Assembly: GCA_046757025.1 (NCBI GenBank)
Contig: JBHHXN010000011.1
Coordinates: 1 to 64,000 of the forward strand
DNA: 64,000 nt
Reading direction: 5' to 3'
Origin: a bacterium
Lineage (GTDB): Bacteria > Zhuqueibacterota > Zhuqueibacteria > Oceanimicrobiales > Oceanimicrobiaceae
Under the pieces are notes generated by a model that saw only the letters and a program-made list of their open reading frames with translations, was not told the DNA's origin and did not search any database. Shown here one piece after another: positions 41,292 to 55,669 of the stretch. Within the stretch, counting starts at the first letter, position 1, and each line of letters opens with the position of its first letter. A program made the translations under genes and the position numbers.

Positions 41292-44200
41292 ATGAGCCGT
41301 AAATCGATTTTAATTTGGGCCGTCATTTTTGGAATGAGTGCGTTTTGGCGGATGCCAGCCAGGTGCCTCGCCCAACCGCAATTTTACAATCATCCAGAAT
41401 TGAAATGGTTTTCAATTGAAACCGAGCATTTTTATGTTCACTTCCACAACGGTGCCGAACGCACCGCCAAAGTGGTGGCCAAGATCGCAGAAGAAATTTA
41501 CGAACCCATCACCTCGTTGTACCAGTTCAGGCCCTCCGGCAAATATCATTTCATTATCAAAGATCACGACGACTATTCAAACGGCGGGGCATTTTTTTAT
41601 GACAACAAAATAGAAATTTGGGCAACGCCCATGCGCTTTGAACTACGCGGTACCCACGATTGGCTGAGAAACGTGGTGACGCATGAATTCACGCACATGG
41701 TGCAGCTGCAATCGGCCCGGAAAATCACCCGCAGAATTCCCGCCTTTTATTTGCAGGCCATCGGTTACGAAAGCACCCGGCGGGAGGATGTGCTGCACGG
41801 CGGACCCAACGTCATTGCATCTTACCCGTTTGCCATGACCGTGATGCCCGGTTGGTTTGCAGAAGGTGTGGCGCAGTTCCAGATTCCCGGCCTGGAATAC
41901 GAAACCTGGGATTCCCACCGGGACATGATTCTGCGTACCGCCACCCTCGATGATAAACTTTTGACTTACAACCAAATGGGCGTGTTTGGCAAGAACAGCT
42001 TGGGAAACGAAAAGGTGTACAACCACGGTTACGCGTTCGTTTCCTATCTGGTGCAGCAGTACGGTTTGGAAACCGTGCGCACGGTTTCCCACAACATGAA
42101 ATCGTTTTTTCGACTGTCTCTGGATGGAGCGCTGAAAAAAGCCACCGGCAAAAGCGGCCGGCAACTGTATAAAGACTGGACTACCGCACTGCGGGAGCAG
42201 TATGTCTCCCAAACGAGTGAAATTAGAAAGAACAAAGTCGAGGGTAAAATTCTGGAAGCCAGCGGCCTTGCCAATTTAAATCCTGTCTGGTCGCCGGAAG
42301 GCACCCGCATCGCTTACCATTCAAATCGAGGGCGGGACTACATGTCGCAGACGCAATTGATGGTCCGAAACATGCAAAGCGGAAAAACCGAAGCGGTCGC
42401 TGCCGGCAGATATGCCATCGCCTGGTCGCCAGATGGCCGCAAATTGGCCTTTGCCAGCAATTCAGCACGCAGTAAAGGCGGCTCCCGATATTACGATATC
42501 TACAGTTATGAGCTGGATTCCCGTAACAAGACCCGTGAAACCAGGGCACAACGCGCCCACAGTCCCGATTGGTCGGCCGACGGAAAGAAACTGGTTTACA
42601 TCACGGCAAAAGACGGCACCGAAAATTTGGAGATTTTACATTTAGACAGCCGAGAAAAAGTTAAGATCACGCACTTCCAGAATGGCGAGCAACTGCATCA
42701 GCCTCGCTGGTCGCCGGACGGTAAGTCCGTTCTCTTTACGCTTTCCAGAGGAAATCACCAGGACCTGTATCTGAAGGATTTGGAAAACGGCGAACTCATG
42801 GCGATTTTAGAAGATCCCGCTGATTCCCGAGATGCCGTGTTCGGTGCGGACGGCAGACACATCTATTTTAGCTGGGACAAAACCGGCATTTACAACATCT
42901 ATTCGCTGGATTTGACGACTAAGAAAACCGTACAATGGACCAACGTCATCGGAGGCGCTTTCATGCCGTCGGTGAGCCGCAACGGTGCTCTGGTGTTTTC
43001 CCTGTTCACTTCAGATGGTTATAAAATCTCTGTCATTGAAAAACCACTGCCGGTGCGGGAATCTTCCGCGCCTTATTTGACGCTTCAGGAGGGACCCCAG
43101 TTTGCTTCTGTAAAGACGCATCTACAAGACGCCAATATAAGCAAAATCAACGTGCACAATTTCGACGATAGCCAGCTTCCCGATTTTCAGATCAAGCCTT
43201 ACAAAAATCAGTATTCCTCGTTGACCTTTTTGCCGCGTGTTATGCTGGATTACGGCACGGTGAAAGTCGGAACCTACCTTTATTCCTACGACGTTTTAAA
43301 TAAATATGGATTTCTGGCGGGTTTTGATGTCAATCGCCGCGGCGATTACGATTTGTTTACTTTGATCGAATATCGAAACTTCGGACCGACCCTGTTTTTG
43401 GAAGCTTATAACCAGATTCAACACACCAAAGCGCGCGTGGACGATCCGAAAATTTTGCTGGGAAGAGGCTTGTTCGATGAAACGGTGGACAAATTTAAGT
43501 TCAATCTGGCCGAGGTGGACGCCGGCGTCAGTTTTAAGCTCAGCGATGCCAACGAGCTGCGAACCGCTTTTGTTTACAGCCGTTACGGCGTGAAAGCGAA
43601 TTTGAATTTTAGCACGGGGCCGGTTACGCTGCATTATAAATATTTTATCGGGCGCGATATTTCCGTCCGCTTCACTCATCGCGGTTTTGTGCCGGCGGTT
43701 GATTCGGAAATCAATCCCACTGGCCGATTCATTTTACTGGAATATGATTTTGAATTTAATAAATTCCTGGAAGATTTTGAAACCGACCAGCCGGTGAGCA
43801 TTGAAAAGTTTTCCAATTTCAACTACCATAAATTTACCGTGGATTGGAAAGAAAATTGGCGTTTGCCCCTGAAAAATCACACCATCAATTTTGTCCTGCA
43901 AGCCGGATTCATCACCACCAAAGATGACACACTGGAAGACGGCACTTTTAAAGACGACAGTTTTTTCTATTTTTTTGGCGGCGGTTTGTTTGGCAACCGT
44001 GGATATCCCTACTTCAGTATCGAAGGCCGAAAATCGATTTTGGGCCGGGTCACCTACCGACTGCCGCTGGTGAGGAACCTCGATTTGCGCTTTATGCATC
44101 TCTATTTCGACAAAATATTTCTGGGCTTGTTTGTCGATTATGGCAATGCCTTTAATGAAAATAAATTAAATTTTGATAAATTCAAAACCAGCGTCGGTGT

Positions 44201-44354
44201 GCAGTTGCGGATGGATAGCTTTTCTTTTTATTCCTACCCAACCCGCGTCTTTTTCGATGCGGCTTATGGGTTGAACAAATTTCAATTTGCAAACCAGACT
44301 TATGGCAATGAATGGAGATTTTATTTTGGTCTCTCATTCGGTTTTTTGGATTAA
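41292..44354 (+). CDS. peptidase MA-like + PD40/TolB propeller + Omp85-type barrel fusion
   Basis: W.sIETEHF, HEFTH, PGWFAEGVA, several WSPDG repeats, DYGNAF, terminal FYFGLSFGFLD. Confidence 0.8.
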   Translation: MSRKSILIWAVIFGMSAFWRMPARCLAQPQFYNHPELKWFSIETEHFYVHFHNGAERTAKVVAKIAEEIYEPITSLYQFRPSGKYHFIIKDHDDYSNGGAFFYDNKIEIWATPMRFELRGTHDWLRNVVTHEFTHMVQLQSARKITRRIPAFYLQAIGYESTRREDVLHGGPNVIASYPFAMTVMPGWFAEGVAQFQIPGLEYETWDSHRDMILRTATLDDKLLTYNQMGVFGKNSLGNEKVYNHGYAFVSYLVQQYGLETVRTVSHNMKSFFRLSLDGALKKATGKSGRQLYKDWTTALREQYVSQTSEIRKNKVEGKILEASGLANLNPVWSPEGTRIAYHSNRGRDYMSQTQLMVRNMQSGKTEAVAAGRYAIAWSPDGRKLAFASNSARSKGGSRYYDIYSYELDSRNKTRETRAQRAHSPDWSADGKKLVYITAKDGTENLEILHLDSREKVKITHFQNGEQLHQPRWSPDGKSVLFTLSRGNHQDLYLKDLENGELMAILEDPADSRDAVFGADGRHIYFSWDKTGIYNIYSLDLTTKKTVQWTNVIGGAFMPSVSRNGALVFSLFTSDGYKISVIEKPLPVRESSAPYLTLQEGPQFASVKTHLQDANISKINVHNFDDSQLPDFQIKPYKNQYSSLTFLPRVMLDYGTVKVGTYLYSYDVLNKYGFLAGFDVNRRGDYDLFTLIEYRNFGPTLFLEAYNQIQHTKARVDDPKILLGRGLFDETVDKFKFNLAEVDAGVSFKLSDANELRTAFVYSRYGVKANLNFSTGPVTLHYKYFIGRDISVRFTHRGFVPAVDSEINPTGRFILLEYDFEFNKFLEDFETDQPVSIEKFSNFNYHKFTVDWKENWRLPLKNHTINFVLQAGFITTKDDTLEDGTFKDDSFFYFFGGGLFGNRGYPYFSIEGRKSILGRVTYRLPLVRNLDLRFMHLYFDKIFLGLFVDYGNAFNENKLNFDKFKTSVGVQLRMDSFSFYSYPTRVFFDAAYGLNKFQFANQTYGNEWRFYFGLSFGFLD

Positions 44355-44374: not shown

Positions 44375-45271
44375 ATGAAAAATCTAACTCTATTCGTGAT
44401 CATCCTGGTGCTTGTGGGAATGACAAACCCGGCCCTGGCTGATGAAGGAGCCAAATCAGCCAAAGAGGTTTTTATGCGCTCCTGGATTGAATCTGGCTCT
44501 CGTTTGCACTTACAAAATGAAATGACCACCAACTCAAATGAAAAAAGATGGCCAGAGCAAGATTTCAAATTGAATGATGAACAAAAGAATGGCACAAAAT
44601 CCATCGCGAAAGCCGTGTTGTTTTCGGCGGCGGTGCCGGGAGCAGGTCAATTTTACAACAAATCTTATTTGAAAAGTATCTTATTTGTGGTACTTGAAGC
44701 CGCCACTTTGACGGGTTATGTTCATTTTCAAAATCGCGGCAATGATCTGGAATCGCAATTTGAACGCTATGCGGATCAATATTGGAGTGAAGATGTTTAC
44801 TGGGACTGGATGGCAAATATCAGCGCCATCGATCGCTCGAATATGGCTGCGTTACGTGAGTTTGAACGCGCAAATTTCAGCCATTTTTTGCCCGAAGAAA
44901 AATCACAGCAATATTATGAGAATATTGGTAAGTACAATCAATTTGTTATCGGGTGGGATGATTTGAATTTTAAACCCGAAAATTTAACTTATCAGGATTA
45001 TCTGAATAGCAGCTACAATGGACAGAATTTGGATACCATATCAGCTTTGCGAGAAGATTACACTTTGCAGCGCAAGGATGCCAACGACAATTTTAAACGC
45101 GCCACCAATTTGATCACCATCACCATGCTCAATCATGTGATCAGCGCCATCGAAGCCGGATTCACCGCTAAACGGCGCAATCGCCGTGCCTTGAAAGCGA
45201 ATATTCGTTTCAGAGGGATGTACTATTACAACGATATTATTCCATCGATAAATTTAGGACTGAAATGGTAA
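44375..45271 (+). CDS. DUF5683-like exported/membrane protein
   Basis: SAAVPGAGQFY, YYENIGKY, NHVISAIEA. Confidence 0.7.
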   Translation: MKNLTLFVIILVLVGMTNPALADEGAKSAKEVFMRSWIESGSRLHLQNEMTTNSNEKRWPEQDFKLNDEQKNGTKSIAKAVLFSAAVPGAGQFYNKSYLKSILFVVLEAATLTGYVHFQNRGNDLESQFERYADQYWSEDVYWDWMANISAIDRSNMAALREFERANFSHFLPEEKSQQYYENIGKYNQFVIGWDDLNFKPENLTYQDYLNSSYNGQNLDTISALREDYTLQRKDANDNFKRATNLITITMLNHVISAIEAGFTAKRRNRRALKANIRFRGMYYYNDIIPSINLGLKW

Positions 45272-46077
45272 AATCCATCGTTCAAATTGGCGTGTTTACC
45301 TGGGCGTTAGGGTTGACTGCTGTGTTCGCGGGAACGCCCCAGCTGCAAAAGCCCTCGAATGCCAACCCATTGCAGCCGTCGCAATTAGGTTTTGAGCTGA
45401 AATTAAAAGCTCTAAATTCTGTGGTGGATAATCGCTACCTGCGCAACGAAAGCAGCACGCTGTCGAATTTTTCTGCCAATTTACAAGCAAAAGTACAGCC
45501 CAAATCCAAAGGCCGAGCCTTTTTGCAGTCGTTGATTTTGCCGGGCTGGGGGCAGTATTACGCTGGCTCTAAATCCATGATGAAAATGTTCATCGTAACC
45601 GAAGTGCTGACTTGGGCCTCCTACATCGGTTTCACCACCTGGAAAAACTGGCTGGCGGACGATTACCGTACTTTTGCGGTCACCCACGCGGGCGTCGATC
45701 TGGAAGGTAAATCCGAAAGATACTTTGTGGACGTCGGTAATTTTCGGGACATCTTTGAGTTTAATCAAGCGCAACTCCGCGACCGGGACGTCGCTTCGCT
45801 CTATCCCGAAACCGCCGAGTTTTTCTGGCGGTGGGACAGCGCGGAAAACCAGCAAAAGTTCGAGACGCTCCGCATACGAAGCGATAGAGCCGGTAACCGA
45901 GCTGAATTTGCCCTGGCAGCGGTGTTTCTAAATCACCTGCTTAGCGCCATCCATTCTACGCTGGCGGTGCATAAATTCAACAAGCAGCTTGCTCAACTGA
46001 AGCTAGGTTTGCGAATGGATGTTAAGGGACTTGCGCAAAACAACCAGCTGCAACTCACCCTGAGTAAACGATTTTAG
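45265..46077 (+). CDS. DUF5683-like protein, paralog of upstream gene
   Basis: SLILPGWGQYY, YFVDVGNF, WRWDS, NHLLSAI. Confidence 0.7.
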   Translation: MVKSIVQIGVFTWALGLTAVFAGTPQLQKPSNANPLQPSQLGFELKLKALNSVVDNRYLRNESSTLSNFSANLQAKVQPKSKGRAFLQSLILPGWGQYYAGSKSMMKMFIVTEVLTWASYIGFTTWKNWLADDYRTFAVTHAGVDLEGKSERYFVDVGNFRDIFEFNQAQLRDRDVASLYPETAEFFWRWDSAENQQKFETLRIRSDRAGNRAEFALAAVFLNHLLSAIHSTLAVHKFNKQLAQLKLGLRMDVKGLAQNNQLQLTLSKRF

Positions 46078-46154: not shown

Positions 46155-46273
46155 ATGAAAACGAAATCGCAAAAATAAACGATATCAAATGTTTGACTTT
46201 TGAAATTCAGATTATTAAAATTCAATATACAAACAGATTTGCGAACGGCACAAAATGGGGATGGCGAGTTAAA

Positions 46274-47062: not shown

Positions 47063-48031
47063 TCAATCTTTTGGGATAGCGTATTTTTTCATTTTAAAGC
47101 GTAACGTTGCTTCCGGTATTCCCAGCAAACGGGCGGCTTTCACTTGATTGCCAGCGAATTTCACCAGCGCCTTTTTGATCAGGTAGGTTTCGACGTCAGA
47201 AATAACCCGTTTTAAATTCGAGACTTCTATGAAATCCAATGGATGGCGTTTGATCTCAAACGGCAGATAGTCGGTAGAGAGCTCGCCATTCGGCGACATC
47301 ATCACCAGGTTTTCAACACAGTTTTTTAATTCATGCGCATTTCCCCGCCAATCATATTCCAGAATGGATTCGAATATTTCAGCGGGCACGGCTGGAATTT
47401 CCACTTCGTTTTCTTCACAATATCTTTTCAGAAAATAGATGAACAGCTCCGGAATGTCCTGTTTGGTCTCTTTCAACGGCGGCACCGAAATGGACAAAGC
47501 GTTTAGAAGATAGTATAGATCTTTGCGAAATTTGCCCGTTTCAACGTCGTGCTCGATGTCCTGGTCTGTGGAAGAAATAATTCTCACTTCGAGCGGAATA
47601 ATTTCTGACCCTCCGATTCTGCGAAAACGCTTTTCACGGAAAACTTGCAACAATTCAAATTGAAAATCCGCATCCAGATCGCTGACATTTTTTAGGTAAA
47701 GAATTCCGCGATTCGCTTTCTCTAAGATACCGATGGTTCTCTGGATGGTGCCATCATTCTTTATTTCTTCGCCGTATAAATCTTGTTTATCCATGGTAAT
47801 CCCCAGCGCAGAACAATTGAGCTCCACAAAGGGGCGATTTTTTTTGGTACTCAAAGAATGGATGAGTTTCGCGATAAATTTTTTACCCGTTCCTGTGTCC
47901 CCCACGATTAAAATGTGGCTGGCCACTTTGGAGAATTTTTTTATCGCTCGTTTTATTTTTTTTGCTTCAGGACTGTTGCCAATAAAGGTTGGCTCCTGAA
48001 AAACTTTCCCCGCATTTTCATTCTCTCTCAT
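47063..48031 (-). CDS. sigma54-interaction-type AAA+/Fis-HTH regulator, degenerate, no input domain
   Basis: GDTGTGK, PFVELNC, FRKDLYY, WRGNAHEL, GNQVKAARLLGI; GAFTGA absent; Walker B reads LYLKNV. Confidence 0.88.
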   Translation of the reverse strand: MRENENAGKVFQEPTFIGNSPEAKKIKRAIKKFSKVASHILIVGDTGTGKKFIAKLIHSLSTKKNRPFVELNCSALGITMDKQDLYGEEIKNDGTIQRTIGILEKANRGILYLKNVSDLDADFQFELLQVFREKRFRRIGGSEIIPLEVRIISSTDQDIEHDVETGKFRKDLYYLLNALSISVPPLKETKQDIPELFIYFLKRYCEENEVEIPAVPAEIFESILEYDWRGNAHELKNCVENLVMMSPNGELSTDYLPFEIKRHPLDFIEVSNLKRVISDVETYLIKKALVKFAGNQVKAARLLGIPEATLRFKMKKYAIPKD

Positions 48032-48049
48032 TTTATGTATCCTTTTAGA

Positions 48050-49123
48050 TTAATTATGTTTAATGGAAATTAAATTGTCATCTTTGAGCCGTTTGTGATA
48101 CAAAGCCGACAGAAAATAAAATAATATGAGAACGCCAAACGCTATGACGACAAAATTCAGTTTAATAAACAGCGAGACTTCAAAATAGTTAATACAGAAG
48201 ACAAAAAATAGCGTTAAAAAGCCCATTGCATTTCGTCGTTGATGAAAATAGGCTTTCATAAAACTGATTACAGATTTTGAAACGCTTTTTTTCCTTTTGA
48301 TCGGTACGCCAAGAGCGTTTCCCGATATCACGATAGAATCGTAGAACTGTCCAAATGGTGAGTAGGCATAATTAAGTAATCTAATCATGGTGATCACAAA
48401 GAACGACAGCGTGACAACCAGTACGTACTGTGTAAAGGTGAAAATGGTGATGGCGTAAATATTGCCGATGAGGTTGGTGATATCCATGATAATCATGATG
48501 AAAAAGCAAACCATGATGGTATTGATGTGTTCTCCTATTGAGCGATCATATTTATACAAAATGACTCCATACAGTCCCAGAAAAAACAACGGCAGGAAAT
48601 CGGAGAATAAAATGCTTTTGTATAAATAAGCGTTATCGTGTTTTAAAATGTATTCTTTATCCATTAAAAACGGAAAAAAGTGCCACAAAAAAATTGGCAG
48701 AATTACAGCTAAACTCAGGCCATAAATGTATCCTGCATCGATTTTTCTAAAGAGATATTTTATACTGATGTAGATAATACAAAAAACAAAAAGAAAAGTT
48801 TGAATAATATTGAGGTACTCGTAGAAAAACCAGGCATGATAGTTATTCCCGATAAAATTATCTTCCCCGATAAAAAGCGCGGCAAAACTGAAGCTGTGAA
48901 ACAGCGCAAAGATGCTGATGTTTAAAAATATGAACTTATTATTTTTACTTTGTTTGAAAAGATAAACGCACTGAAGAAAAAGCAAAAAATAAATCGAGCA
49001 ATTGAGCCAGGTTAAAATGGGAACCTGTTGATGCGGTAGATTTGTAAGAATGATGAGTATTAAAACGAAGGACAACCAGACATTGATAACCCGGAAATGA
49101 ATATTGAAATTTTTGGAAAACAT
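48050..49123 (-). CDS. polytopic membrane protein (~10 TM), sensor-like, no catalytic domain
   Basis: 357-aa highly hydrophobic ORF in apparent operon. Confidence 0.8.
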   Translation of the reverse strand: MFSKNFNIHFRVINVWLSFVLILIILTNLPHQQVPILTWLNCSIYFLLFLQCVYLFKQSKNNKFIFLNISIFALFHSFSFAALFIGEDNFIGNNYHAWFFYEYLNIIQTFLFVFCIIYISIKYLFRKIDAGYIYGLSLAVILPIFLWHFFPFLMDKEYILKHDNAYLYKSILFSDFLPLFFLGLYGVILYKYDRSIGEHINTIMVCFFIMIIMDITNLIGNIYAITIFTFTQYVLVVTLSFFVITMIRLLNYAYSPFGQFYDSIVISGNALGVPIKRKKSVSKSVISFMKAYFHQRRNAMGFLTLFFVFCINYFEVSLFIKLNFVVIAFGVLILFYFLSALYHKRLKDDNLISIKHN

Positions 49124-49189
49124 CTTGACCCGAACAGTTAGAGTTGGTGAATTGAATTAGATTTACTGCAGATATCATTCTGCTTAGCA

Positions 49190-49465
49190 CTATTCTGTGC
49201 CTCCGTCCTTCTTGTCTTTGTCCCTGGGGGCTGGTTTTTTTAATGGCGCCGGTATCGGACTTCGAAAGCTTGCTTTTAAATTGAGATCAGAACTGACGGT
49301 ACCATCTTGAACCACGGTGGTGGAGGCTAATGCACTGGAACTGCTAATTCCAATTTTGCTTAAAACTTGTGTTACTTTGTTCTGTTTATCGATGGATGCG
49401 AATACGAACACAAAAAGAACGTAAACTAAGACGAGCATTACGACGGCGAACAGTTTTTTCTTCAT
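49190..49465 (-). CDS. small exported peptide / membrane-anchored precursor
   Basis: AAGGAGG RBS; MKKK plus hydrophobic helix; Ser-rich middle; Pro/Lys/Asp-rich tail. Confidence 0.8.
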   Translation of the reverse strand: MKKKLFAVVMLVLVYVLFVFVFASIDKQNKVTQVLSKIGISSSSALASTTVVQDGTVSSDLNLKASFRSPIPAPLKKPAPRDKDKKDGGTE

Positions 49466-49512
49466 TGTGACCCTCCTTCATTTTCATGAATTAAACTGTT
49501 CGGGTCGCTTAA

Positions 49513-49541
49513 AATATATTACTATTCTTTCAAATTGTCAA
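49513..49541 (-). promoter_or_regulatory. sigma70-type promoter of peptide operon
   Basis: TTGACA-17 nt-TATATT on minus strand. Confidence 0.7.
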
Positions 49542-49729
49542 GCAAAAACGTATGGAATTGCGAACATTCTGAAATTATTAATAATTTTACGCAAAAACTT
49601 ACGTATTGGAGGGGCGATGCTTCGAATTAAAATGTTCTAATTCGCCAAATGTGACTTGCGTATGAAGAAAATACTAAAGTTTTTTGGATTTGTCAATAAT
49701 TATTTTAGGAAATTAGCAATTTGTTCTGA

Positions 49730-51334
49730 TCAATTGCGCAAATCCGCCATTGACAACAAAACATGGGCATTGGGAAAATATTTGATGGCTTCTTTGAGTT
49801 GTTTATCTCGCGCAACATTTACTTTGAAGCGGGCGTCGCTGCCCCAGAGCAGGTAGGCCATTTCTCGTTTCAGTAAAAATTTGATATCGCTTTTGTCCAC
49901 ACCGAAATCGATTAGGGAAAAATAGGGGTCCGTGCTTTTAACATATTTCATAAAATCCCAGTAGAGTTTCTTGGTTACCTGAAAATTTTCGATAAAATTC
50001 TCTTTCGCCCTCTTCAATTCTGGATGTATGCGGATAAAATCTTTCGCAAAAGCATAAAAAAATCTTTTCTCTGAAAAGTAAAGCTCCCGTAAATTATCGG
50101 AAAGCACGTTTTCCTGGTTGTCTATCCAGATGTCGGGGGTAATGCCGCCACCGCCATAAACCGTGCGGCCGGATAAGGTTTTAAATGCCGGTTTGGCGAT
50201 GATATTGTTTTTTTGGTTACGCTTCTGATCATCGTATGCCGCCCGGTAATATTCATCTTTGGTTTTTTCAAAATAGTCCCTCTGGATAGCTCTTCCACTT
50301 GGCGTGTAATATCTGGCGGTGGTGATGAGCAGCGCGGAACCATCATGAAAGCGGTATTGACTTTGCACCAGCCCTTTGCCGAAGCTGGTTTTCCCGATGA
50401 TCAAGCCGCGGTCTAAATCTTGAATGGCGCCGGCAACGATTTCGGCTGCGCTGGCTGAGCCGTGGTCGATCAGGACCACCAGGGGTACAAGGCGATGCGT
50501 GGTCTCGGAGGTGGAGTAATATTCTTGAAAGCTGCTGGGCAGCCGGCCCTTTGTGGTTAAAATTTTGTGTCCCCCGGGAATAAACTTGTCGGTTACATCG
50601 ATGGCGGTATTCAAATAGCCTCCGCTGTTGCCCCGCAAATCCAGAATGAGTTTTTTCATGCCTTTCGCTTCCAATTTCGTCAAGGCTTTTTCCAGTTCGG
50701 TAGAAGTTTTACTCGTAAATCGTTCGATTTTTACATAGCCGATATCGTTTTGAATTAAATGGCACTGGGTCAGACTTTTCAGTAGAATTTTCTCACGGAT
50801 GAGCTGCTTTCTCTTGGGTGCGCTCCAACGCTCGCTTTCAACCAATAAATTGATGGGCGTACCGGCGGGGCCCATCATTTTTTTTAGGAAATCTTCTTTT
50901 TTGATTCCGATCACCGAAGTGTCGTTGATTTCGATGATTTTGTCGCCTCGTTGTATGCCATTTTTGGAAGCCGGTCCGGATTCGATAACTTTCATCACCG
51001 TCACTTTGTCCTGGATGATTTCAAAACTGATGCCGATGCCGGTATAACCTTCAAAACTCTGGTTCCACATTTTAAAATCGTCCGCTGGCAGGTAGTTGGT
51101 GTGTGGGTCTAATTTTGAAACGACGCCTTTGATGGCGTTCTCGATGAGCTCATCGGCATCGGTTTCCTCGACGTAAGCCCGCTGGATGGTGTCCAGTATG
51201 GAGGTGAAGAGCTTGACTTTGGTGTACAGATTTTCAGAATACGTGATGAATGCGGCGGTGGTTTCTTGACCATAAAAATACGCAAATGTGAAACCAAAAA
51301 GGGCGAGGGCAGTTACAAATGTTTTCCTTAACAT
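49730..51334 (-). CDS. S41A carboxy-terminal processing protease
   Basis: LDPHT, GIGI PDZ, DLRGNSGG, SASAAEI, SFGKGLVQ, YYTPSGR, GGGGITPD; ATG 51334 has AGGAGA RBS. Confidence 0.95.
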   Translation of the reverse strand: MLRKTFVTALALFGFTFAYFYGQETTAAFITYSENLYTKVKLFTSILDTIQRAYVEETDADELIENAIKGVVSKLDPHTNYLPADDFKMWNQSFEGYTGIGISFEIIQDKVTVMKVIESGPASKNGIQRGDKIIEINDTSVIGIKKEDFLKKMMGPAGTPINLLVESERWSAPKRKQLIREKILLKSLTQCHLIQNDIGYVKIERFTSKTSTELEKALTKLEAKGMKKLILDLRGNSGGYLNTAIDVTDKFIPGGHKILTTKGRLPSSFQEYYSTSETTHRLVPLVVLIDHGSASAAEIVAGAIQDLDRGLIIGKTSFGKGLVQSQYRFHDGSALLITTARYYTPSGRAIQRDYFEKTKDEYYRAAYDDQKRNQKNNIIAKPAFKTLSGRTVYGGGGITPDIWIDNQENVLSDNLRELYFSEKRFFYAFAKDFIRIHPELKRAKENFIENFQVTKKLYWDFMKYVKSTDPYFSLIDFGVDKSDIKFLLKREMAYLLWGSDARFKVNVARDKQLKEAIKYFPNAHVLLSMADLRN

Positions 51335-51729
51335 CGGTGTTATCTCCTTATCTTCTGGTGTCCGGAGGCGTTGAATACACGCATGCTTGAATAAGATAAC
51401 CATTCTATTCATTCTATTCTGGCACGCGGGCGCAGTGATTTCACGTTCTCGATTGGACGTAATTCTATGTTTCGTAAATTGCCACAACGACTTTCTTCTC
51501 AAAAATATAAGAACAAAAATCGTTTTTTAATTATTCGGGAATTTTAACAGCCTAAAATGGTTTTCTAAATTAGATGTGCATTAAAATATGAAAATGATTC
51601 TTCGAGATGGCGGCATTCCTATTCACCAATACCTGAAGGATAAGATTTTTGCGTACAACTTTGTTAAAATATATCGGGTAGTTGTAAAAAAAATTAACTT
51701 GACTAACTGTTATATTTTGTTAAATTGAA

Positions 51730-52678: not shown

Positions 52679-55669
52679 ATGAAATCGTCAGAGAAATTTA
52701 TTCTGTCTTTTTGCCTTTTTCTTGTCTTAGGAAGCTATTCAAACGCGTTTAGTCAATATTACTTTGGGCGAAATAAAATTCAGTATGACGATTTCGAGTG
52801 GAAAATTTTAAAGACCGAACACTTTGATGTGTATTTTTATCCGGAAATGACCGAGCTGGCCGAGATCGGTGCCGCCTTTGCCGAAAAAGCCTATCATCGC
52901 CTGGAAGCCAAATTAAATCACAACATCAAAGGCCGAATCCCCCTCATCTTTTATTCCAATCACTCACATTTTCAGCAGACCAACACCATCCCGAGCTTCA
53001 TTCCTGAAGGCGTGGGCGGATTTTTCGAATTCATCAAAGGCCGGGTGGTCATCCCATCCGACGGATCGATTCATAAATTCAAGCACGTGATCAACCACGA
53101 ACTGGTACACGTATTTACCCGCAGCAAGATGAATCGCGTGCTCAAAGATCACCGCAAAACCACACTTGCTGGTTTGCCGCTCTGGTTTACGGAGGGAATA
53201 GCTGAATATTGGTCCGAAGGCTGGGATTCGCAAGCGGATATGATCCTGCGCGACGCCGTCCTCAGCGGGCATCTGGTGCCGTTGAGCAAAATGGATTATA
53301 TCTATGGCACATTTTTAATGTACAAAGAAGGCCAGGCTATTTGTAAATACATTGCGGAAAATTTTGGCGAGGAAAAGCTGCTGCAGTTGATCGAAAACAT
53401 CTGGAAGGAGAACTATTTTTCGGATGTTATGAAATTAACCATCGGCTTGAATTATAAGGAATTTGATGAAAAGTGGATTTATGATCTTAAAAAGAAAAAC
53501 TATCCTTTGTTAGAAGAAGGCGATTCCCCCAAAATGGTGACGAAAGTCGTCACCCGTGAAGGCATCAACACCAAACCCACCTGCTTTAAACAGGACGGGC
53601 AGGAGTGGGCGGTATTCGTGTCGAATCGTGTGGGCTACTCGAATATTTATAAGAAGCCATTGAAAAGTCAGAACGGCCAAACAGAAGTGGTTGTGAAAGG
53701 GGAACGCACTTCGGATTTTGAATCGTTCCATTTGCTCAGCAGCAAAATAAGCGTGAATCAGAAAGGCCAGCTGGCATTTGTTTCCAAAAGCGGCGCCAGC
53801 GACGTGATTCATGTTTTCGATATTGCAAATAAAACCAAAATCAAAAAGTTCAAATTTGAGGGTCTGGTTTCTCTGTCCTCGCCAAACTGGTCACCGGTCG
53901 GCGATAAAATCGTGTTTTCAGGTATCAGTTTCGCGGGCTTGAGCGACCTTTACGTGGTGGAAGCAGCCACCGGAAAATTGCAGCGCCTGACCAACGATTT
54001 TTATGATGATCGCGACCCGGCCTGGGCACCTGATGGCAAAGCCATCGCTTTTAGTTCGGACCGTTCCTACTACGGAAAACATGGCTTCATGAATTTGTTT
54101 TTGTATAATCTGGAAAACGGTAGCATTCAATATTTGACCGTGGGCAAACAAAATGATTATTCGCCGGCGTGGTCACCGGACGGCAAAAAGATCGCTTTTG
54201 CTTCGGACCGGGAAGGCGCCTTTAATATTTGGATGATTAAAAATAATCTTCAGGAGCCTGAAATATTGCCCATCTCAGAATCATTCAAAGCGGCTTTAGT
54301 ACAAGAAACCCATCCTCAAAACGTGATCTGGGGCGACGGCAAAAATGGCAGCAACGGCAGCAGCCTGTTTAATTGGGATGAACCAGAATATGATTTTCCT
54401 TCAGCCATCGAAACCGCGGATCAAATTAAAAAGATCACGAACTTCACCACGGGCGCATTCGATCCGGTTTGGCTGAATGAAGATCGAATGCTGTTCACGG
54501 CCTTTGAAAATTTTTCCTTTCAAATTCGGGAAATTGACAATCTGACTGAAAAATTTGAAGAAGCGCCGGCCACAGAAAACGATTCGCTCATGGTGAAGAG
54601 AAATAACTGGACCGCCGACAAACTGGCGGGTGAAATCGAGTCGCAGACTTTGAAATACAAAAGAAAGTTCAATCTCGATATCGCGCAGAGCGCCATTTCT
54701 CAGGACCCGATTATTGGCGTGTCCGGCGGCGCACAAATTGCCATGAGCGACATGCTGGGTAATCAACAATATTATTTCCTCATCTACAATAACGCGCAAA
54801 CGCGCGGTGAGTTCTTCAAAAGCTGGAACGTCGCGATTACCCGCGTGGAACTGTCCAAACGCATCAATTACGCCATTGGCGGATACCACATCACCGGCCG
54901 ATTCTTTGACCAGGTTGACAGTTTTTTCGATCAAAGACGGCTTGGTGGATTTGTGGCCGCGAGCTACCCGTTTTCGGTGTTCAGCCGCCTGGAGGGCAGC
55001 ATCAATCTGCGCAAAGAAAGCCGCGTGTACGATACCCGCGGGCAGACGGTGGACGGCATCGTGGTTTCCAATGCGGTCTCTTATGTCAAAGATAACTCGC
55101 TCTGGGGCTTTACCGGCCCCATCGACGGCGAGCGCTTCAAATTTACCCTCGGCCACACGGTTGATGTGCAGCACAACGACGTGAATTTTTACACCATCAT
55201 TCTGGATTATCGCAAATATTTTCGCCTGGGCCGGCGGGTTACCTATGCCACGCGCTTGATGACGCGCATCAACCAGGGCAAGGAAGCTTTTCGATATTTT
55301 ATGGGCGGCAGCTGGGACCTGCGGCTGCATCCGAGATGGCGCATTTGGGGCCGCAAGCTGTTTTTGATCAACAATGAGCTGCGCTTTCCATTTATCGATC
55401 GCTTTTTGCTGGGCTTCCCGTTTGGCGGTCTCGGATTCAATGCCATTCGCGGGGCCACCTTTCTGGATTTCGGTCAGGCCTGGGACCGCGACTATCAATT
55501 CAATGAAATCCTGGGCAGCCTGGGCTTCGGTTTGAGATTGCGCATCGGTGGTTTTCTGGTGCTGCGCTATGAAATCGGCCGCAAATTCAAAATTCGCGAT
55601 TTCAACAGCCCTAGTTTGCATTTTGAAAAAGGACTGAAAAAAGCCTTCTGGTTTGGATTCGATTTTTAA
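52679..55669 (+). CDS. peptidase MA-like + PD40 propeller + BamA/Omp85-type barrel fusion
   Basis: FGRNKIQY, HELVH, PLWFTEGIAE, WSPDG repeats, MGGSWDLR, NNELRFP, FLDFGQAW, terminal FWFGFDF. Confidence 0.87.
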   Translation: MKSSEKFILSFCLFLVLGSYSNAFSQYYFGRNKIQYDDFEWKILKTEHFDVYFYPEMTELAEIGAAFAEKAYHRLEAKLNHNIKGRIPLIFYSNHSHFQQTNTIPSFIPEGVGGFFEFIKGRVVIPSDGSIHKFKHVINHELVHVFTRSKMNRVLKDHRKTTLAGLPLWFTEGIAEYWSEGWDSQADMILRDAVLSGHLVPLSKMDYIYGTFLMYKEGQAICKYIAENFGEEKLLQLIENIWKENYFSDVMKLTIGLNYKEFDEKWIYDLKKKNYPLLEEGDSPKMVTKVVTREGINTKPTCFKQDGQEWAVFVSNRVGYSNIYKKPLKSQNGQTEVVVKGERTSDFESFHLLSSKISVNQKGQLAFVSKSGASDVIHVFDIANKTKIKKFKFEGLVSLSSPNWSPVGDKIVFSGISFAGLSDLYVVEAATGKLQRLTNDFYDDRDPAWAPDGKAIAFSSDRSYYGKHGFMNLFLYNLENGSIQYLTVGKQNDYSPAWSPDGKKIAFASDREGAFNIWMIKNNLQEPEILPISESFKAALVQETHPQNVIWGDGKNGSNGSSLFNWDEPEYDFPSAIETADQIKKITNFTTGAFDPVWLNEDRMLFTAFENFSFQIREIDNLTEKFEEAPATENDSLMVKRNNWTADKLAGEIESQTLKYKRKFNLDIAQSAISQDPIIGVSGGAQIAMSDMLGNQQYYFLIYNNAQTRGEFFKSWNVAITRVELSKRINYAIGGYHITGRFFDQVDSFFDQRRLGGFVAASYPFSVFSRLEGSINLRKESRVYDTRGQTVDGIVVSNAVSYVKDNSLWGFTGPIDGERFKFTLGHTVDVQHNDVNFYTIILDYRKYFRLGRRVTYATRLMTRINQGKEAFRYFMGGSWDLRLHPRWRIWGRKLFLINNELRFPFIDRFLLGFPFGGLGFNAIRGATFLDFGQAWDRDYQFNEILGSLGFGLRLRIGGFLVLRYEIGRKFKIRDFNSPSLHFEKGLKKAFWFGFDF

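Follow-up and report, generated by a model that had tools for sequence, protein, structure and literature searches.

A candidate peptide-sensing module without a kinase, comprising a predicted GPCR-like membrane protein and a degenerate AAA+ regulator, in a KSB1-group bacterium

We analyzed a three-gene locus (47063..49541, minus strand) in a 64,000-nt stretch of DNA, here called the window, from an uncultured bacterium of the KSB1 group. In order of transcription, the genes encode a small precursor with a proline-rich core, a membrane protein predicted to fold like a G-protein-coupled receptor (GPCR), and a regulator derived from the bacterial enhancer-binding proteins (bEBPs). A sigma-70-type promoter, two copies of a palindromic box and the arms of a long-range RNA helix accompany them (Table 1). 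We propose that the locus is a peptide-sensing module in which the membrane protein acts on the regulator without a kinase.

Organization and distribution of the locus

The layout reported by a first-pass annotation of the same DNA was reproduced. The three open reading frames (ORFs) are co-oriented and separated by 66 and 18 nt, the 91-aa protein carries the tail quoted at that time, and the second protein has about ten hydrophobic helices and matches no family in Pfam or NCBIfam, in line with the absence of a kinase or enzyme domain. The regulator has no REC, GAF or PAS input domain, and a gene for an S41 protease with a PDZ domain lies upstream on the same strand. The promoter, TTGACA-17-TATATT, had been called a consensus one; it agrees at 11 of 12 positions and ranks first among 28 promoter-like sites in 8 kb, a length in which shuffled sequences yield 16.6 +/- 4 sites. 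The AT-rich character noted earlier is that of the membrane gene (GC 0.34) and of the upstream region (0.31) against a genome value of 0.47, to which the regulator gene (0.42) and the peptide gene (0.43) are closer. The membrane and peptide genes each occur once in the genome.

Table 1. Features of the locus and its surroundings in the window
Feature	Position	Strand	Basis or remark
Peptide precursor gene, 91 aa	49190..49465	-	ORF list; basic N-terminus, hydrophobic helix, variable spacer, Pro-rich core, charged tail
Membrane protein gene, 357 aa	48050..49123	-	Extra N-terminal helix, predicted GPCR-like seven-transmembrane (7TM) core, helix 8, basic cytoplasmic segment, two C-terminal helices
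Regulator gene, 322 aa, bEBP-derived	47063..48031	-	AAA+ without GAFTGA, Walker-B Glu or Arg finger; Fis-type helix-turn-helix (HTH); no input domain
Predicted sigma-70-type promoter	49513..49541	-	Consensus match; position kept in relatives
Shine-Dalgarno (SD) sequence of peptide gene	49472..49478	-	Sequence; SD match of at least 5 nt in 36/36 leaders scored
Predicted active core, residues 68-75, x-D/S-P-x-P-x-P-x	49241..49264	-	Register of the unit repeated in relatives
Proximal palindromic box, candidate class II activator site	49549..49562		Perfect box; ends 7 nt before -35
Distal palindromic box, candidate second regulator site	49590..49603		Perfect match to CGYA-N6-TRCG
5' arm of long-range helix, at about +1 of the predicted transcript	49494..49506	-	Covariation
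3' arm of long-range helix, at the usual SD place	49127..49139	-	Covariation; ends 3 nt before membrane gene ATG
Alternative 5'-arm pairing site, peptide codons 4-9 (early hairpin, state A)	49440..49456	-	Predicted -20.7 kcal/mol, z -2.0
S41/CtpA-type protease with PDZ, syntenic neighbour	49730..51502	-	Pfam; real start likely near 51334

Of the phylum's 167 genomes, 71 encode the membrane protein; among the 105 good genomes, 52 do. Searches returned 74 close relatives, and 199 cluster representatives at E <= 0.001. Related records are mostly labelled candidate division KSB1, some Calditrichaceae, Caldithrix or Cytophagia. None was found in viral contigs. Neighbourhoods were counted for 70 of the 93 listed membrane-protein matches, the window locus being one row, in a table corrected by hand (L064 dropped as a false peptide call and L047 added, with unchanged totals). 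Where the contig left room, the peptide gene lies upstream of the membrane gene in 58/68 loci and the regulator downstream in 58/65, and all three stand in order in 50 of the 63 loci with room on both sides; the co-occurrence that the first-pass annotation had asked about is thus present. These tallies are counts and not statistical tests because kin are not independent. The gap between membrane gene and regulator is short throughout the phylum. The C-terminal half of the regulator was found in 93/167 genomes; 70 of these are among the 71 that encode the membrane protein, and 23 gave no match to it. The pairwise similarity matrices of the three proteins correlate at 0.70-0.76, a figure that carries no weight for coupling because shared descent explains it.

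Some loci depart from this arrangement. Seven (L062, L064, L073, L076, L082, L056 and L028) lack a peptide gene beside the membrane gene and regulator and, except possibly L056, also lack the RNA helix described below; these are possible 'solo' receptors. Three (L060, L061 and L053) hold the peptide and membrane genes with no regulator after them, and in L060 and L061 the next gene resembles glutamine synthetase by eye. A paralogous copy of the module (L009-L013), mostly multi-core and with its own regulator, has the helix and lacks a perfect box; it lies downstream of an NlpC/P60-like gene and a gene for a TRAM-domain RNA methyltransferase. The regulator or membrane gene is split in two in L007/L038, L077, L136 and L137, through a frameshift or an assembly error.

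The three encoded proteins

The 72 distinct precursors, for which a hydrophobic helix was a selection criterion, are 60-186 aa long and end in a Pro-rich segment after a variable spacer. Lys or Arg lies within the first seven residues in 71 of them, followed by the hydrophobic helix, and in many members, read by eye, a pair of small residues like that preferred by signal peptidase follows the hydrophobic region (h-region). P-x-P-x-P occurs in 62/72, and eight precursors hold 2-8 copies of the 8-residue core; the window peptide has a single core and no diproline (PP). In 26 clade members aligned on the motif, the three core prolines are kept in 26, 25 and 26 sequences. In the multi-core precursors, the eight core columns hold 44 synonymous and 0 non-synonymous variants, compared with 29 and 31 in the flanks, although part of the zero is built in because the cores were aligned on their own motif. 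The precursor at L099:3667-3858 carries a lipobox and may therefore be a lipoprotein.

Among 97 diverse members of the membrane protein family, Pfam searches gave no kinase domain and no transporter, peptidase or 7tm family; one member matches 7TMR-DISM_7TM at E 3e-4 and one matches Acyl_transf_3. No residue is invariant in their alignment. The longest relative among the best 150 of the 199 cluster representatives has 403 aa. No fused output domain was seen in the listed relatives, and a weak search confined to proteins of 707-2015 aa found neither relatives nor such a fusion. The concern that the protein might be a fragment of a known kinase or transporter is answered in the negative by this size limit and by the lack of Pfam coverage. 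Membership in HisKA_7TM or 7TMR-DISM was rejected, since hhalign gave probabilities of 1.6% and 2.6% against 97% between those two, with comparison domains drawn from the same phylum. Sequences of the PDB gave no match to the A1 profile at E <= 10.

The predicted model (predicted local distance difference test, pLDDT, 81.6; predicted template-modelling score, pTM, 0.81) consists of eight helices followed by a short amphipathic helix, after which come a basic segment and a final pair of helices. In a wide structural search with VIA, all 50 rows were GPCR or GPCR-fold chains covering residues about 30-262. The best match reached Z 14.5 with a root-mean-square deviation of 3.6 over 211 residues, followed by GABA-B (14.3), LYCHOS (14.1) and mGlu2 (13.8); VIA warns, however, that helical bundles can reach Z 13-14 through arrangement alone. 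All 50 Foldseek rows were also GPCRs, but none at E <= 0.001 (best 0.029, TMq 0.29-0.41). The Atlas's own model of the protein matches GPCR clusters at TM about 0.5, and the Atlas searches gave leads all below 0.9, HisKA_7TM at 0.81 among them. Transporter and hydrolase folds are missing from the fold-search listings, with which such folds nevertheless remain compatible.

Enrichment of Lys and Arg in alternate loops points to the GPCR orientation, with the N-terminus of transmembrane helix 1 (TM1) outside and helix 8 inside. Across the 97-member family, conservation among the loops is highest in cytoplasmic loop 3 and helix 8. Both of these, together with the helical tail, are retained in distant members (one carries the label Bacteroidota), from which the last two helices are missing. 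The distant members numbered P0139-P0221 have 300-400 aa, and many carry a long insertion in the second outer loop. We read the membrane protein, on the predicted model, as a new standalone family with a GPCR-like fold, a reading that does not imply common ancestry with GPCRs.

The regulator consists of the Sigma54_activat, AAA lid and HTH_8 domains; the AAA+ domain starts at residue 17, and no other domain, and no tetratricopeptide repeat (TPR) family, is among its Pfam matches. A GAFTGA-like loop is found in 0/70 module regulators, the Walker-B Glu in 0/70 and Arg at the finger column in 2/70, whereas each is present in 45/45 canonical paralogs of the genome; the Walker-A Lys, also present in all 45, is kept in 56/70. 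The lid and the HTH are the best-kept parts. In a quick tree, 98 degenerate proteins fall on one side of a branch with a support of 100 and 14 canonical paralogs on the other, and the closest folds to the regulator model are NtrX (top) and ZraR. The regulator is predicted to be an ATPase-dead sigma-70 activator. Its output is not that of PspF, to which it had at first been likened, because GAFTGA and the Walker-B Glu are both gone.

Promoter box, RNA helix and flanking genes

The box CGYA-N6-TRCG lies 6-9 nt before the -35 element. A perfect copy is present in 18 of 43 loci, among them that of the window, although the box was defined from the same loci in which it was counted. A weight matrix recovered it at the same spacing in the non-training loci L081, L085 and L096. 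The distal box, which lies 41 bp upstream of the proximal one and was not among the training sites, is the second-best matrix match in the 5.96-Mb genome. The best match is also in the window (46165-46221, plus strand), 8 nt before the TTGACT-17-TAAAAT promoter of the convergent rpiA gene; we did not accept rpiA as a regulon member, since the box is present in 0/12 related rpiA upstream regions. The box and the -35 element are retained at loci with the regulator only (L121, L129 and L100), a pattern that would fit autoregulation.

The first bases of the predicted transcript are complementary, over 11-13 bp, to those just before the ATG of the membrane gene. Both arms of this helix are found in 45 of 82 distinct loci, and the 5' arm begins 5-7 nt after the -10 element in 33 of the 45. 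Core cells are Watson-Crick in 462/495 cases, with internal departures of 16 G-U, 2 A-C and 9 others. In 31 loci aligned whole, 96% of 400 cells pair and 8 of the 13 pairs change on both sides, while slid controls reach at most 50%. In other clades, different sequences form the same pairing, and one clade's helix covers a real SD. In 39/69 peptide-bearing loci, the duplex outscores 99 or more of 100 shuffles; among peptide-less loci, it outscores all 20 shuffles in 1/11. The evidence for the helix is covariation, because the stability of the whole 431-nt leader-plus-ORF is unremarkable (z -1.3). Rfam returned a single chance match at E 0.61. Pairing in RNA is favoured over DNA inversion between the arms because of the G-U bias. 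Inversion was rejected as the principal explanation, no joint being present in four contig sets of one study, two of them possibly the source of this DNA, although contigs drop rare variants. An 11-mer that overlaps the 5' arm has one more exact match, at G000:C100:16151.

An SD of at least 4 nt precedes the membrane gene in 0/36 cases, and 407 of 837 long ORFs of the genome have one. Where the peptide starts with Lys-Leu-Phe, the Leu codon is CTG in 22/22 sequences and the Phe codon TTC in 21/22, against backgrounds of 20% and 38%. Codon choice at peptide codons 4-9 thus appears fixed beyond amino-acid need; the alternative pairing at these codons is confined to the window's clade. In the folding model, transcription of the 3' arm replaces the early hairpin (0.91) by the long helix (1.00). 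The membrane gene start then has a mean unpaired value of 0.23, and the long helix is predicted to mask it. A first reading, in which the long helix frees the ribosome site of the peptide gene, was not borne out by folding models.

Among upstream neighbours in other loci (25 non-redundant of 42), no kinase was found and the families varied. In the window itself, two tandem DUF5683 genes lie at 44375-46077 (plus strand). Two large proteins of similar layout are encoded at 41292-44354 and 52679-55669 (plus strand), the second with Peptidase_MA_2 and PD40 and the first judged by eye.

Proposed mechanism, alternatives and known systems

The reading that we favour, with slightly better than even confidence, is that a peptide acts through a GPCR-fold receptor on a sigma-70 activator with a dead ATPase, without a kinase. 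The precursor would be exported, and housekeeping proteases would release the core outside the inner membrane, or the cell would display it there. The short Pro-rich core would then bind the outer pocket of the membrane protein, whose conserved face towards the cytoplasm, made up of loop 3, helix 8 and the tail, would directly control the regulator, most simply by holding it at the membrane and freeing it on peptide binding. The regulator would bind the palindrome beside its own promoter, giving positive autoregulation, and the helix would keep receptor synthesis low or delayed relative to that of the peptide. Sequence comparison shows the trio, the core with its conservation and repeats, the loss of catalytic and sigma-54 motifs, the palindrome at its fixed place and the covariation of the helix. 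Fold, topology and masking of the receptor start are predictions from models. It is possible, although we consider it doubtful, that the module is a functional counterpart of peptide-hormone signalling through GPCRs, with a multi-core pheromone, a standalone receptor, a P-loop pseudo-NTPase as transcription factor and an mRNA switch that chooses between signal and receptor.

The peptide-sensor module put forward in the first-pass annotation keeps its outline and is strengthened by the predicted GPCR-like fold of the membrane protein and by purifying selection on the multi-core precursors. Maturation by the S41 protease was part of that proposal and has been dropped: the gene adjoins the module in only 9/51 other loci, and it stays beside the regulator where the peptide and membrane genes have been lost. 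We rejected it as a dedicated maturase, and it is probably not a dedicated part of the module.

Besides this scattered adjacency, the fold-search scores and the built-in part of the core count, several observations weigh against our reading. No conserved protease or exporter was found among the neighbour genes scanned, and the h-region is long enough for an uncleaved anchor. Of the 63 loci with room on both sides, six are without the peptide, four without the regulator and three without both, and a weak profile search for the peptide gene elsewhere in five peptide-less genomes found none. No membrane-protein match was obtained in 23 of the 93 regulator genomes, two of which hold contig-end fragments. 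Among 40 further regulator loci examined, 28 have the regulator only, the rest being membrane-gene pieces, contig-end cuts, broken loci or near-duplicates. The regulator tree forces at least nine changes, and regulator-only loci fall inside triplet-bearing clades. At L130, a decayed peptide core stands about 300 nt before the regulator start, between the S41 gene and the regulator, with the membrane gene gone, and appears to be a relic of module loss. Because of this relic and of the position of the regulator-only loci, we conclude that peptide and receptor were lost repeatedly, so the regulator must be useful without its cognate receptor or be served by a paralog. The perfect box is missing in 25 of the 43 loci, including paralogs with a nearly identical HTH. 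Finally, the folding models are undecided on the peptide-translating state, with 21/43 cases more open after the switch.

The small ORF could instead be a secretion-monitoring leader of the SecM/VemP type, in which a ribosome stalled on the Pro-rich core shifts the helix and opens translation of the membrane gene and regulator, with no ligand at all. A study of monitoring substrates gives as their marks a signal or transmembrane segment, a conserved C-terminal motif and a spacer of more than 30 residues, plus a fourth (bioRxiv 10.1101/2023.09.02.556018). Three of the four are found here (signal/TM, conserved C-terminal sequence, and a spacer of at least about 30, judged by eye), and the masked downstream start, the alternative pairing in codons 4-9 and the PP in 52/72 tails and PPP in 30/72 point the same way. 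However, RAPP, RGPP and RAGP occur in 0/72 precursors and the window peptide has no PP. The distance from the last core to the 3' arm is 33-141 nt (median 81), too long and variable for a stalled ribosome to cover that arm. In addition, the downstream gene is neither sec nor yidC, the helix falls below the 1-in-100 shuffle level in 30/69 loci that keep the peptide, and up to eight conserved core copies fit a ligand better. We regard a leader as unlikely, while placing it ahead of the other alternatives. The small protein could also stay tethered to its own cell, by an inner-membrane anchor or as a lipoprotein, and serve there as ligand or co-sensor, so that the module would report the state of the envelope rather than density. 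The long and very hydrophobic h-region, the lipobox of one relative (L099), the lack of an exporter or outer-membrane transporter conserved nearby and the S41 adjacency in the window's lineage would suit such tethering. A released, shared signal instead fits the identical core copies with their spacers, the persistence of receptors where there is no peptide, and the signal-peptidase-like residue pair seen by eye in many members, and we rank tethering just behind the leader in likelihood.

Two further explanations concern the partners. The regulator may be an atypical activator with a housekeeping role that answers to a nucleotide or to some other partner, with the peptide and membrane genes as mere targets that signal, if at all, through something unlinked. 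Indeed, it persists alone in many lineages with its box and promoter, it keeps the Walker-A Lys in most members, and VpsR is controlled by cyclic di-GMP, according to PMC6158489. On the other hand, the membrane protein itself carries no output domain and is accompanied by the regulator in all genomes save one, the paralogous copies at L009-L013 bring their own regulator, and the membrane gene-regulator gap is uniformly short. This explanation stands third among the alternatives and is likewise improbable. Least of all would we expect the membrane protein to transport the peptide, form a channel for it or cleave it within the membrane, in the manner of AgrB or a permease. It has ten helices, and the source of one distant relative names that protein 'MFS family permease', but the 97 members lack transporter or peptidase family matches and any invariant residue, and the fold searches list GPCR-fold chains only. 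This last case we hold to be very improbable.

Known bacterial peptide signals are sensed either by kinases in the membrane or by TPR proteins in the cytoplasm. A third route of peptide sensing would, if true, be offered by a GPCR-fold protein that stands alone and is linked to a candidate ligand and a cytoplasmic transducer. We found no published description of the module in a literature search that reached few subscription papers and no supplements, and the kinase-free trio is likely an undescribed bacterial sensing route. If true, a bacterial peptide receptor would also bear on the debate over the origin of GPCRs, where the prokaryotic discussion concerns rhodopsins (PMC13466386). The three genes, box and promoter take up 2.6 kb, and the many natural peptide-receptor variants could yield orthogonal peptide sensors.

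Among peptide-signalling systems, the module resembles Agr and ComCDE in its operon of precursor, polytopic sensor and transcription factor and in a candidate autoregulatory site at the promoter. It differs in lacking a histidine kinase, a receiver domain and a dedicated processing or export gene, in its Sec-type signal and in its diderm host. RRNPP systems rely on a cytoplasmic TPR receptor, whereas the module regulator contains no TPR family. The regulator shares the AAA+ domain and Fis-type HTH with classical sigma-54 bEBPs such as NtrC and PspF and has lost their GAFTGA, Walker-B Glu and Arg finger. PspF also lacks an input domain, and the module regulator is likewise probably controlled by a membrane-associated partner; however, PspF works with sigma-54 and still has GAFTGA and an active ATPase, while the module regulator has lost both motifs. 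A better match is offered by the atypical sigma-70 activators VpsR, TyrR, NtrX, HupR, HsfA and PhhR, which, according to PMC6158489, combine AAA+ and a Fis HTH with no GAFTGA, a degenerate Walker B and a site directly upstream of -35, here a candidate palindrome. VpsR of V. cholerae, a GAFTGA-less, Walker-B-degenerate sigma-70 activator that binds just upstream of -35 according to the same paper, is the closest precedent for the regulator. Unlike these proteins, the module regulator has neither an N-terminal input domain nor an Arg finger and is linked to a membrane protein and a peptide.

With SecM, MifM and VemP, the subject of the monitoring-substrate study (bioRxiv 10.1101/2023.09.02.556018), the module shares a signal-bearing upstream ORF, a Pro-rich conserved end and a helix that masks the next start, but its helix encloses the whole ORF, it has no RAPP-type motif and its downstream gene is not sec or yidC. 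The replacement of an early local hairpin by long-range 5' pairing recalls the metastable hairpins of type I toxin mRNAs, as PMC6733600 presents them, although no antisense RNA was seen at the module, where no search was aimed at one. A predicted GPCR-like 7TM bundle is shared with the enzyme-fused bacterial domains of DgcT and CdgI and with HisKA_7TM and 7TMR-DISM. DgcT and CdgI have such domains fused to cyclases according to PMC10760455, whereas the module protein is standalone, without cyclase or kinase, and is linked to a candidate peptide ligand. The predicted model has the 7TM bundle, the N-out/C-in orientation and the helix 8 of the GPCR superfamily without sequence homology to it, and the linked cytoplasmic protein, a candidate transducer, is an AAA+-type factor. 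The yeast alpha-factor and its receptor Ste2 likewise combine a signal peptide and tandem identical cores with a 7TM receptor; compared with them, the module has no sequence homology that we found, no dibasic Kex2-type spacers, and an AAA+-type candidate transducer in place of a heterotrimeric G protein.

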